15,169 bases of DNA. It comes from an uncultured archaeon (GTDB lineage Archaea > Asgardarchaeota > Lokiarchaeia > Sigyniarchaeales > SOKP01). A program made the translations under genes and the position numbers. The notes under the pieces are model-generated. The model made no database searches, had not been told where the DNA came from, and saw only the letters and a program-made list of their open reading frames with translations. Location: positions 1-15,169 of the forward strand of contig CAZOYD010000077.1 of assembly GCA_964583985.1 (NCBI GenBank), in the 5' to 3' direction. Shown piece after piece: positions 4,007 through 15,169 of this stretch. Every line of letters begins with the position of its first letter. Within the stretch, counting starts at the first letter, position 1.

Positions 4007-6604
4007 TTATTTATTTTCTTTTTTTTTGGTAGATTCAGGAATTCTCTTTAATTCTTCAAAACCAGAAGGAAATAGATTAGTAAGTTTCCGTGGTGTCGTA
4101 TCGTATCCATTTTTTCTCATTATCTTATAGAGTTTTTCAGAATTGTATTCATAAGAATAATCCATTACTTCGATTGATAAAAGCATGTAAGAGAATGAGG
4201 TGAGGAATGGTGTTCCATAGAACATTACTATTAAAAGAAAAATTCCAAATATAAACATAAAAACTGCATTTGAATCATTTCCTGTAAAAAATCCTGAAAA
4301 ATCCACTGTCTGAAAAAAAGAAAAAAAAGTAATAACAGCTGAAAATCCAGCGATACCTTTTACAATTGATTGAGCCCATATACTGATAGGTTCAATATCT
4401 CCAGGTTTTCTATGTTTCTTTGATTCAAGATAATAAGCAATTCCAGCATCATCTAGTAAATAGTTTCCCGAAATAAAAAATGAAAATATTATGAATGTGA
4501 GGACCATCGGAATAATAGATAATAAATTATACCCGATCATAAATAGGAAGAATTCTTGTCCACCAAAAACATCAAATGTTTGAGGATACCCAAATATTGG
4601 TGAGAGTGAATTGTAGGAGTAGAATCCTATTGCCATTGAAAGAAGTAAGGGAAGGATAACTCTTTTGAGTCTAATAATGGTGCTTAATTGTCTCCTATCT
4701 TGTAGATCTTCAACAAAAATTGCATATTTATGACTCTTTGAAAACTTGAAAAAGAAACTGCGAAGCGATATAAAACCATAAGCAAATTGAGGTGCAAATT
4801 GATTATAAATACAAGCTGTTAAAGGAAGTAACCCAAACCAAATAATTGTTGTAGCAGTATATACAATCGTAAGACCTGTCATGGAGTCCCCAGCAATCAA
4901 TGTCCTATTGAAGATGTTTAACATCAATAAGAACATGACGAAACTAATTGTCATTAATGCTACTACTACAACATTTACAGCAACAGCCATTTTACTTTGT
5001 TGTAATCTGTTTCGTTTTGGTTTTATCTTCTTTCCATTAATAATTATTACTATCAGACTAAAAACGAGCATAATTGCAAGAATTATAAAGATGGTAAGTC
5101 CCGGTTCGAATATAGGAGAAAGCCAAATGGGAAATGGTTTTTGAGTGGAAATGGCTGTTATTTTATCACCATCTTCAAAAGCATAATCTTTTTTGCCATC
5201 ACCATCAATATCGGGAATAGTGATAATATTCGATATATGATAATCAATATTAATTAATGCTAGTTCAGTATTTGATATCGGATCAATTATTATAAATCGA
5301 CTTCCTTCTTGTCCGGTCAACGTAGTATGTCTAATGGTTAGCAAAATTTCATCGCTATTATCTCCAGTAAAATCTTCTTCTATTACGAAACATCCCGGTA
5401 ATTCTTCATTTTCATCAGGAGTAAATTTATAATACTGCCAAATAATATCGTGTTCAGTTAGAGAGATAGAATAAACATATGCAAAGTATTCCCTTTCATC
5501 ATAAAGAGATATACTAATTAACACGTGAGCAATTCCATCATCGATCTGAGTATTCATTGCGGTTACATCAGCTGTATTATCAGTTATTGGTAAATTAAAA
5601 TAATCGAGAAGATTTCCATCCAAACCATTCAAAATGCTTACATTTCCTTCCCATGAAATTGTTAAAATCTCGTGAATCCCATCAAGGTTGAGATCTTCCA
5701 CAAAACAAAATGTATTGATATATAATCCATTTTTAACGAATATTGGATCTAATAAATTGTCTATGCTCTTATTATATAAGATAATACCATCATTCTTGAG
5801 AAAGATGACATTATTTTGACCATTGTAATCAAATTCTCTTATTGTTGGAAAAGTCGAATCATAAAAGACATAAGCACTCGAGGTAGAATTCATAAAAATC
5901 GATTTAGTTCTAGTTCCATTAATAAAATAGGTGGAAATATTTACTAGATAATTTTCACCAGGAAAATTATAATATTTTCCTTCTAATAGAATAAAATCTT
6001 CGATATTATCACCAAGATCACTGACTCTAATAACACCTAAGATCAAATTTGTAGAAATAATCCCTGAAAGTGAGCTTCCATCCTCTCCACTTATTATTAT
6101 ATTTGTAAAGTTATTATGAATAATCATAGGTCTCATTCGGGTTCTATTATCAGAACCCTCTGTATAAATATCCCAAGATTCATTGACTTTCACCATATTT
6201 GCAAAAAAATCTTCATAACCATCTGAATTAATATCTCCTATAGGATAAAGACTCCGAACTGGTGTAGTATATTCTTTTGACCATATTTTCAACCCTGTTA
6301 TTCCATCAATAGCGTAAATCCCTCCATATCTCGGGGTATTATAAGTATACTTGTTTACATCATCTAAATCTATATCTCGAGTATACATGTTCACAATTAT
6401 ATCTGAAACTCCATCATTATTTAAATCTCCAGTAAGTTGCATATCAAAATTAACAGGATATTGATTAGAAACATCATCCCAAGTATACCCCGGAATAAGT
6501 TCCATTTGAGTGACAAAAATTAATCCTAGAGATCCGAAAACGAGAAATGAAATCGCCAGTAGAATTATGTTTACAGGGTTCTTTAGTTTCATTGCTCTTT
6601 TCAT
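4007..6604 (-). CDS. Membrane protein: N-terminal signal/TM helix, FG-GAP/VCBS-like (Ca-blade) beta-propeller ectodomain, C-terminal multi-pass (~7 TM) domain
   Basis: Repeated DxDxDG-like loops (GDLNNDGVSD, GDINSDGYED, SDLGDNIED, EDLNLDGIHE, EDFTGDNSDE, PDIDGDGKKD) and 'AIDGITG..IWS' blade ends. Hydrophobic N-terminus. About seven hydrophobic segments follow aa ~500, the first followed by a basic KKIKPKRNR stop-transfer stretch. Confidence 0.85.
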   Translation of the reverse strand: MKRAMKLKNPVNIILLAISFLVFGSLGLIFVTQMELIPGYTWDDVSNQYPVNFDMQLTGDLNNDGVSDIIVNMYTRDIDLDDVNKYTYNTPRYGGIYAIDGITGLKIWSKEYTTPVRSLYPIGDINSDGYEDFFANMVKVNESWDIYTEGSDNRTRMRPMIIHNNFTNIIISGEDGSSLSGIISTNLILGVIRVSDLGDNIEDFILLEGKYYNFPGENYLVNISTYFINGTRTKSIFMNSTSSAYVFYDSTFPTIREFDYNGQNNVIFLKNDGIILYNKSIDNLLDPIFVKNGLYINTFCFVEDLNLDGIHEILTISWEGNVSILNGLDGNLLDYFNLPITDNTADVTAMNTQIDDGIAHVLISISLYDEREYFAYVYSISLTEHDIIWQYYKFTPDENEELPGCFVIEEDFTGDNSDEILLTIRHTTLTGQEGSRFIIIDPISNTELALINIDYHISNIITIPDIDGDGKKDYAFEDGDKITAISTQKPFPIWLSPIFEPGLTIFIILAIMLVFSLIVIIINGKKIKPKRNRLQQSKMAVAVNVVVVALMTISFVMFLLMLNIFNRTLIAGDSMTGLTIVYTATTIIWFGLLPLTACIYNQFAPQFAYGFISLRSFFFKFSKSHKYAIFVEDLQDRRQLSTIIRLKRVILPLLLSMAIGFYSYNSLSPIFGYPQTFDVFGGQEFFLFMIGYNLLSIIPMVLTFIIFSFFISGNYLLDDAGIAYYLESKKHRKPGDIEPISIWAQSIVKGIAGFSAVITFFSFFQTVDFSGFFTGNDSNAVFMFIFGIFLLIVMFYGTPFLTSFSYMLLSIEVMDYSYEYNSEKLYKIMRKNGYDTTPRKLTNLFPSGFEELKRIPESTKKKENK

Positions 6605-6811: not shown

Positions 6812-7225
6812 GTGTTAAATTTTATATTTGCTATTTTGCAGATAATAATAGCGATAGGTTTGATTGGTTTCTGGACTATGTTCTATATCACAGAATATAA
6901 GAATAAGGACAGGAAGATGTCAGAAGTAGAATTCAAGCATGAACTGTCATTTCCTCTACCAGATCTTGGATGGGTTCTTCCTAATTTAATTATCAGTTCA
7001 ATTGGACTTCTATTGAGTGAGTCTTTTGGCTACTTCTTTTCTATTACTGCCGCGAGCGGAATGATGTTTTTAGGTTTGATAGACTTAGCTTTTAATCTCC
7101 AAAATGGGGGATTTAACATTAAAAAGCATGGATTTGATGCTTACATGAGCATTTTTATTGTCTCGATAATGTTAATTTTGGGTCCAATATTTTTAATTTT
7201 TGGATGGTTCAACATGATTCTATAA
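6812..7225 (+). CDS. Small integral membrane protein (~4 TM), function unknown
   Basis: GTG start with GGAGG RBS at 6798-6802. Four hydrophobic segments with an HELSFPLPD loop. Ends 21 nt before the next co-directional gene. Confidence 0.85.
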   Translation: MLNFIFAILQIIIAIGLIGFWTMFYITEYKNKDRKMSEVEFKHELSFPLPDLGWVLPNLIISSIGLLLSESFGYFFSITAASGMMFLGLIDLAFNLQNGGFNIKKHGFDAYMSIFIVSIMLILGPIFLIFGWFNMIL

Positions 7226-14582: not shown

Positions 14583-14597
14583 AAAAAATAGAAAAAG
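14583..14597 (-). terminator. Putative oligo-T terminator directly after the SECIS
   Basis: The minus strand reads CTTTTTCTATTTTTT immediately after the closing helix of the hairpin. Confidence 0.55.
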
Positions 14598-14664
14598 ATC
14601 CCTAATCCTTGCGGGTTGTCCCCAGACGTCTATCATTTATACATCCAGATCATCCTTATGGGAT
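14598..14664 (-). promoter_or_regulatory. Eukaryote-like SECIS element in the 3' UTR of the peroxiredoxin-like selenoprotein gene
   Basis: The minus strand reads AUCCCAUAAGG-AUGA-UCUGGAUGU-AU-AAA-UGAUAG-ACGUCUGGG-GA-CAACCCGCAAGGAUUAGGGAU. AUGA (14653-14650) lies opposite GA (14620-14619), AAA sits 11 nt after AUGA, the upper stem UCUGGAUGU/ACGUCUGGG has 9 pairs, and the lower stem is AUCCC/GGGAU. About 45% GC (30/67), far above the other intergenic regions. Confidence 0.85.
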
Positions 14665-15169
14665 TTAAAGTTTTGTATTAATTGCATCCATCATCATTTC
14701 AATTGAAGGTCTGTCAGTCTTAGTTTTTCCAAAATAGGTCCAAACAATTTTTCCTTCCTTATTTATGAGAAATTTACTCGGTACTGCTTGCTTTGATTTC
14801 AATGAACTCTCACCTACAGGAGCAAAACAATATACTTCATAATCACTTGCAATTTTCGCGTCATGATCAGCTATTATATCGATGGTAATTTTATTATCTT
14901 CCTTGAATTTTTTTAAAAACCTTACACTATCAGCAGCAATTGATATAATTTTGATAATTTTGATATCAAATTGAGATTGATTTTCGGATAATAAAACTAA
15001 ATGTTGTTTTCAACGATTTCACCAATTTCCTCTAAAAAAATCGATAAGAACTCCATTAAAGATTTTTAAAAGTTGAGTTAGAATGATATTATTGCCATAG
15101 ATGTCTTGCGTGTTGAATAATGGTGCGTTTGAACCAACTGGCAGACCTTTCGGTCTCGGCGGTTCTTCA
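14665..15169 (-). CDS. Peroxiredoxin-like (AhpC/TSA, thioredoxin-fold) selenoprotein with a UxxU motif; 5' end lies outside the window
   Basis: Not in the ORF track. Frame from 15168: EEPPRPKGLPVGSNAPLFNTQDIYGNNIILTQLLKIFNGVLIDFFRGNW-U-NR-U-KQHLVLLSENQSQFDIKIIKIISIAADSVRFLKKFKEDNKITIDIIADHDAKIASDYEVYCFAPVGESSLKSKQAVPSKFLINKEGKIVWTYFGKTKTDRPSIEMMMDAINTKL*. TGA codons at 15019-15021 and 15010-15012 align with the Cys residues of the family's FYRGxWCxxC motif. Family features continue after the TGAs (ISIAAD, IIAD, AVPSKFLINKEGKIVW, DRP). Confidence 0.9.

Follow-up and report, generated by a model that had tools for sequence, protein, structure and literature searches.

A probable two-selenocysteine peroxiredoxin-like gene with a lokiSECIS element at the end of an Asgard archaeal contig

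Does a reading frame that runs off the end of an archaeal contig, interrupted by nothing but two TGA codons, encode a protein with two selenocysteines (Sec), and if so, what kind of protein would it be? The stretch of DNA analysed here, which we call the window, is 15,169 nucleotides long and constitutes an entire contig (C77:1-15169), so the frame is open at its 5' end. Translated with TGA as U, it runs over 167 codons on the minus strand (15168..14665) with the two TGAs as its only interruptions, and the coordinates, peptide and TGA count given in the initial annotation were reproduced exactly. The coding sequence (14665..15168, minus strand) ends in TAA (14667-14665), and its first three codons (MAD) lie beyond the contig end. 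The first in-frame UGA (15019..15021, minus strand) specifies residue 50 of the fragment (Sec53 of the full protein) and the second (15010..15012, minus strand) residue 53 (Sec56 of the full protein). These are positions 1 and 2 of a redox box, FFRGNW-U-N-R-U, within an AhpC/TSA thioredoxin-fold domain. The read-through product matches the Pfam families AhpC-TSA (E 6.3e-21, 75 bits against a cut-off of 26; residues 11-143, flanking both TGAs) and Redoxin (6.6e-13), the two families that the initial annotation had named for such a search. With translation table 11, all that can be called here is a 5'-open piece of 49 aa and a TTG-initiated ORF of 45 aa, which means that ordinary ORF callers miss or split the gene, as the initial annotation had claimed. 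Judged from the sequence, an open frame matching AhpC-TSA in DNA of 32.6% G+C is far beyond chance. From this and the evidence below we conclude that the region is very probably the gene of a cytoplasmic two-Sec peroxiredoxin-like (PrxL) thioredoxin-fold selenoprotein of a Lokiarchaeia-type Asgard archaeon (Promethearchaeota), with its UGAs read by means of a lokiSECIS element and with a thioredoxin/TlpA-like oxidoreductase as the best guess for its product.

The 5' end of the gene is supplied by a JGI metagenome contig (L055) that matches the window without a difference over 610 nt, a stretch that takes in both TGAs and the 3'UTR. One base differs farther downstream, and L055 is therefore a separate assembly. 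It places an ATG three codons upstream of the contig end, giving a protein of 170 aa that begins MADEEPP... (L055:942-1454) and so providing the start codon that extension of the contig had been expected to reveal. A TATA-like ATTATTTAAA precedes this ATG. The N-terminus, MADEEPPRPKGLP, contains on reading by eye no hydrophobic segment that could form a signal peptide or anchor. The same contig bears on the proposal that the TGAs are sequencing or assembly errors, or that TGA is a sense codon throughout this genome. Nothing was found in favour of either version, beyond the circumstance that the other genes of the window happen never to end in TGA. Against error stands the recurrence of both TGAs in L055, a contig set apart from the window by a single-nucleotide difference elsewhere, which also answers the concern of the initial annotation about sequencing mistakes. 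Against a general sense codon stands the absence of in-frame TGA from all 12 other ORFs of the window, in which TGG serves for tryptophan; TGA is thus no general sense codon here. Taken with the dedicated tRNA-Sec and the SECIS element described below, these observations effectively refute this explanation.

Downstream of the gene we found an element that matches every feature of the lokiSECIS given by Mariotti et al. 2016 (PMC4989117), namely an AUGA, a 9-bp stem, an 11-nt loop with an A-rich start and a terminal G, and a GA. The core (14619..14653, minus strand) begins 11 nt past the TAA, about 360 nt downstream of the UGAs, and consists of AUGA (14653-14650), the 9-bp stem (14649-14641 paired with 14629-14621), the 11-nt loop AUAAAUGAUAG (14640-14630) and GA (14620-14619), in the order AUGA-UCUGGAUGU-AUAAAUGAUAG-ACGUCUGGG-GA. 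The loop has the form AUAAA...AG, in which the first five bases are A-rich and the last is a G that follows an A. The whole SECIS-bearing structure (14598..14664, minus strand) is closed by an outer helix of AUCCC (14664-14660) and GGGAU (14602-14598), and reading of the sequence directly after it reveals two oligo-U tracts (14583..14596, minus strand) that are likely to be an archaeal transcription terminator.

The same layout lies 2-19 nt past the stop codon in 28 homologues. In an alignment of 26 homologous 3'UTRs, 92% of the stem cells are paired, compared with 24-64% when the partner columns are slid; compensatory changes on both sides are seen in eight of the nine stem pairs, and the covariation score was reached by none of 500 shuffles. 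RNAalifold recovers the same helix. The bases that do not vary across the 3'UTRs are the GA of the AUGA core, the AAA of the loop, the terminal loop G and the GA. The strict lokiSECIS pattern occurs nine times in the 3.8-Mb genome and one to three times in shuffled versions; the other matches include ones that follow a [NiFe]-hydrogenase large-subunit gene and three VhuD-like genes, the latter containing in-frame TGAs. The minimum-free-energy fold of the window's 3'UTR is no more stable than those of shuffled sequences (z 0.21), so support for the element comes from pattern and covariation, not from energy. An Rfam search gave no SECIS match at E values up to 10. Since Rfam has no family for the lokiSECIS, nothing else was to be expected, and we do not count this result against the element. 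The outer helix and a small 3' hairpin appear in most sequences of the window's clade (clade A, below), as an unquantified outcome of constrained folds in a three-helix test that was partly spoiled by a constraint setting.

The Sec machinery, whose presence the initial annotation had made a check on its reading, is found in the genome. The tRNA-Sec scores 59 bits, over the Rfam cut-off, and is called by ARAGORN as SeC with anticodon TCA; directly downstream lies SepSecS (467 bits). An EFSec-like GTPase on the same contig, 4 kb away, has selB as its best NCBIfam model (235 bits, compared with 131 bits for the best EF-Tu model). This GTPase, which is just under the bacterial selB cut-off, and a PSTK-like gene are best matches that fall below NCBIfam cut-offs of models built from other lineages. 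A SelD gene with its own in-frame TGA is also present, and the genome accordingly has tRNA-Sec, PSTK, SepSecS, EFSec and SelD, the components of the archaeal/eukaryal Sec pathway. Several of these genes are clustered within 6.5 kb (G000:C27:14433-20957), with the EFSec-like GTPase at 14433-15320 (minus strand), tRNA-Sec at 19492-19580 and SepSecS at 19656-20957.

Homologues were sought in six frames with stops read through. Of 60 related genomes, 30 were found to carry the PrxL gene; in a sample of 300 genomes of the phylum the carriers number 42, almost all of them members of one family-level group. The first redox-box position is TGA in every one of the 46 motif-bearing homologues from the phylum sample, in each of about 36 homologues in the relatives and in all 39 sequences that were read. 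The second position is TGA in 17 of the 46 and Cys (TGC or TGT) in 29. The conservation of the TGAs that the initial annotation looked for in relatives is thus complete across the homologues at position 1; at position 2 about one homologue in three shows it. A maximum-likelihood tree places the window's gene in a well-supported clade (98/97), clade A, the crown of which carries U-x-H-C and the basal members of which (L035, L053 and L056) carry U-x-H-U. The sister clade (U-H-Y-U) and more distant clades are all two-Sec. The window's gene therefore sits in a mixed UxxU/UxxC clade that is sister to an all-UxxU clade in this tree, and at least three switches between Sec and Cys at position 2 are needed on it.

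Within this family the window's gene departs from its relatives in its redox-box spacer, in an extra Cys and in the length of its branch. The spacer reads N-R; in members of its clade it is x-His, and in the two-Sec sister clade H-Y. The codon responsible is CGT (Arg; 15013..15015, minus strand), where the other 23 clade-A genes that were read have CAT or CAC (His). A TGT codon (14830..14832, minus strand; Cys113 of the fragment, Cys116 of the full protein) replaces a Trp (YWF) found in all clade-A orthologues. Cys116 is the sole Cys outside the redox box of this protein and is unique within the genus-level clades A and B, and an extra Cys is also found in three distant homologues from another family (L050, L044 and L040). 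The terminal branch of the window's gene is long (0.52). PrxL identity to other genomes of the genus is 59-66%, and that of the neighbouring dehydrogenase is 55-68%; with the neighbour about as diverged as PrxL, the length of the branch is attributable to the species, not to the gene itself.

These departures raise the question of whether the second TGA is merely a recent change of Cys to stop (TGC to TGA) in a decaying or relaxed copy, leaving a pseudogene or a truncated product. The closest relative (L052; G027:C67, 1191 nt), a scaffold in which a 10-N gap removes about 120 nt of PrxL, supplies much of the case for decay. Its redox-box codons are TGA AGT CAT TGC (U-S-H-C) against TGA AAT CGT TGA in the window, so that position 2 is TGC and the three variable codons all differ, each of them non-synonymously. 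DNA identity between the pair is 77% over the N-terminal part of PrxL and 88% over the adjacent dehydrogenase, and dN is 0.22 for PrxL compared with 0.057 for the neighbouring gene at similar dS. In this comparison (dS ~0.5), which is unsaturated but noisy, PrxL has an omega of 0.24 before the UGAs and 0.56 after them, and the neighbouring gene one of 0.12; the value of 0.56 is only weakly below 1. The unique Trp-to-Cys change and the long branch point the same way, although the latter is accounted for by the divergence of the species.

Against decay, the 114 codons after the UGAs contain no other stop and no frameshift in DNA of 33% G+C, and the window's gene keeps all 17 columns in which 25 family members are invariant, 11 of which lie beyond the UGAs. 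Against nine more distant clade-A orthologues and one homologue from the sister clade, the codons after the UGAs give pN of 0.19-0.37 and pS of 0.56-0.79; omega is 0.11-0.31 in the nine comparisons with estimable dS, although saturation of dS against most relatives limits what these ratios can say. Omega downstream of the TGAs, which the initial annotation had singled out as informative, is thus below 1 throughout, and we take the values to mean that the gene is constrained but fast-evolving. The SECIS is intact, similar to that of the closest relative, and the differences between the two preserve pairing. The two-TGA state is shared by homologues that include whole clades, and the first UGA already needs read-through by the same SECIS. 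We consider decay very unlikely. Some relaxation may nevertheless have occurred in the window's gene, given that Arg for His and the extra Cys are seen in this member alone. A strong acceleration was considered and dropped, a relative-rate count having given a modest excess in the window's lineage (13-16 compared with 8-12 changes).

What kind of enzyme the two-Sec protein might be is a question for its fold and active site. An AlphaFold model (pLDDT 90.7) has its best structural match in Sulfolobus Bcp4 (3hjp, TM 0.83), and the nearest structures overall are peroxiredoxins of the PrxQ/BCP and AhpE types. The best sequence match in the PDB is likewise a PrxQ/BCP protein, Aeropyrum Bcp (2cx3), in the alignment with which U53 (the second Sec, in fragment numbering) lies on the peroxidatic Cys. 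Foldseek also matches ResA, with a TM score of about 0.69 normalised to the query and 0.84 normalised to the target, and PDB sequence matches to the ResA/TlpA/CcmG type reach 1e-8. In the ResA alignments (4nmu and 2h1b), U50 and U53 lie on Cys74 and Cys77 of the WCxxC motif, and Pro133, which is invariant in the family, is aligned with the ResA cis-Pro.

The peroxiredoxin matches open the possibility that this is a genuine two-Sec selenoprotein but a peroxidase, in which one Sec would be oxidised to a selenenic acid by peroxide and the other would resolve it to a diselenide, in the manner of glutathione peroxidase (GPx) or peroxiredoxin. Besides the structural match and the position of U53, a weak NCBIfam match to thioredoxin-dependent thiol peroxidase (46.5 bits) favours this assignment, and TxxU peroxiredoxin selenoproteins exist in bacteria (PMC13188914). 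The PrxQ/BCP signature of P-x3-T/S-x2-C plus Arg is nevertheless absent from the window's protein. In the comparison with 2cx3 the Pro is replaced by Arg, the Ser/Thr by Sec, the peroxidatic Cys by Sec and the catalytic Arg by Gln, so that three of the four active-site residues are missing and PrxL is no canonical peroxiredoxin. Moreover, the invariant Sec of the family is the first residue of the redox box, whereas the position corresponding to the peroxidatic Cys is Cys in 29 of the 46 homologues, and WCxxC together with a cis-Pro is a signature of thioredoxin and ResA. We regard peroxidase activity as possible, if on balance doubtful. A thioredoxin/TlpA-like oxidoreductase is our best guess from the aligned residues, and the choice is weak because the nearest structures are peroxiredoxins and the second Sec falls on their peroxidatic Cys.

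The oxidoreductase assignment draws on the likeness to ResA, TlpA and CcmG (DsbE), with which the protein shares the G-x-W-C-x-x-C motif and the aligned cis-Pro. Those proteins are membrane-anchored, extracytoplasmic and use Cys, unlike the window's protein, which has neither signal nor anchor and uses Sec; its score of 54 bits against the ResA model NF002854 is also well short of the cut-off of 170. SelL of aquatic metazoans (Shchedrina et al. 2007, via PMC4989117) offers a second comparison: it too has a peroxiredoxin-like thioredoxin fold and a UxxU motif encoded by two UGAs two codons apart, a single 3'UTR SECIS serves both, and a diselenide has been proposed or shown. SelL is eukaryotic, however, and the window's protein scores 52.6 bits against a cut-off of 120 for NF040769, 'SelL-related redox protein', which makes it an analogue and distant relative of SelL and not a member.

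The closest published counterparts are the Asgard PrxL proteins themselves. Mariotti et al. 2016 described two peroxiredoxin-like genes in Lokiarchaeum: PrxL.2 encodes a single Sec, and in PrxL.1 Sec takes the place of both Cys. They also reported metagenomic homologues with one or two Sec, all of them accompanied by a lokiSECIS, and on the model of SelL they proposed a diselenide for PrxL.1 (PMC4989117). Peroxiredoxin-like selenoproteins were reported in 43% of Sec-using Asgard genomes by Huang et al. 2024 (PMC11227280), and a 2026 review gives the motifs of the family as UxxC and UxxU, with one or two Sec (PMC13188914). The peptide of the window was not found in the supplements of PMC11227280. 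Like PrxL.1 and the other Asgard peroxiredoxin-like proteins, the window's protein has an AhpC/TSA fold without the peroxiredoxin TxxC. In this group the first redox-box residue is Sec and the second either Sec or Cys. The lokiSECIS close to the stop of the window's gene, its host lineage and the Sec machinery of that host all match the published cases. It differs from the PrxL of Mariotti et al., as they are described, in having one Cys outside the redox box; the absence of such a Cys from every PrxL was noted there as a property and not as a definition (PMC4989117).

These comparisons suggest how the gene might be expressed and how its product might work. The eukaryote-like lokiSECIS past the TAA, acting with EFSec, tRNA-Sec, PSTK, SepSecS and SelD, would direct Sec insertion at both UGAs. 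The two lie two codons apart, and one SECIS would serve both, as for SelL and the published PrxL.1. The GPx attacking residue lies at the same place as the first Sec of PrxL. This Sec is the likely nucleophile, being invariant and lying in the alignment where thioredoxin and ResA have their attacking residue. The second position would be the resolving residue, which can pass between Cys and Sec by single-base changes; such changes would be tolerated if, as we infer, a SECIS in the 3'UTR decodes any UGA in the message. That the first position is always Sec while the second alternates suggests the same division into attacking and resolving residues. The oxidised form of the window's protein would then contain an intramolecular diselenide. 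For the PrxL family as a whole, Sec insertion, diselenide formation and enzyme activity are likewise presumed from sequence.

The gene family, its two-Sec form and its SECIS have all been published, so that current understanding is unchanged; the initial annotation had itself cautioned that a two-Sec peroxiredoxin-like class might already be known from Lokiarchaeota, and it is (PMC4989117; PMC13188914). What is new lies in small details: Arg in place of the clade's His, the extra Cys and the labile Sec/Cys second position. The case bears out that a multi-Sec gene of Asgard genomes escapes public gene calling. It also adds a small quantitative point, in that close relatives differ by several Cys/Sec switches at position 2 of PrxL while position 1 is always Sec; such a pattern fits a 3'UTR SECIS able to decode every UGA of the mRNA. 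The idea that a recent adaptive remodelling of the redox box (U-S-H-C to U-N-R-U, together with the Trp-to-Cys change) created a distinct diselenide enzyme with a third redox residue strikes us as unlikely; if true, Cys-to-Sec gain enabled by a position-independent 3'UTR SECIS would be seen here in progress. The gene could help to test the biochemical function of PrxL and the formation of a natural diselenide.

The surroundings of the gene are conserved in the order membrane protein, PrxL and a convergent 3-hydroxyacyl-CoA dehydrogenase, which identifies the window's gene as the positional orthologue. The first of these, a 257-aa multi-pass membrane protein (L055:91-864, plus strand) that contains no Cys and matches no Pfam family, is encoded immediately upstream of PrxL and on its strand. 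A Cys-free membrane protein is found upstream in all 22 orthologous loci that were checked, at 43-55% identity, and may be a co-transcribed partner or may represent nothing but conserved gene order. Three large ORFs of the window have no Pfam family (4007-6604, 865 aa; 1409-2995, 528 aa; 6812-7225, 137 aa), and the remainder are redox and metabolic genes: an aldehyde:ferredoxin oxidoreductase, an Fe-ADH, two SDRs, an NAD kinase, an aminotransferase and a methyltransferase. Among the 11 complete ORFs other than PrxL, nine stop with TAA, two with TAG and none with TGA; the twelfth exits the contig end.

Several further SECIS-like elements came to light. In two of the two-Sec orthologues (L035:2010-2065 and L056:2005-2060) the core reads AGGA for AUGA, the 9-bp stem and 11-nt loop being otherwise perfect. 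In another orthologue (L023:2008-2070; G023:C9) the ORF is not in frame with the usual TAA and continues to a UGA within the AUGA core of its own SECIS. Elsewhere in the genome of the window, a short hydrophobic ORF (G000:C9:23291-23470, plus strand; locus L068) contains a TGA three codons from its end, and a strict lokiSECIS pattern follows the ORF at a distance of 20 nt (at 23491); this could be a chance match, about two such matches being expected at random. A 148-codon frame without a Pfam match (G000:C126:649-1095, plus strand; loci L067/L069) contains two adjacent in-frame TGAs (..HAD-U-U-ADN..) and is followed 25 nt past its stop by a lokiSECIS pattern (C126:1121). Homologues of this Sec-Sec frame are present in 47 of the 60 related genomes, nearly all with exactly two TGAs and a conserved read-through tail.
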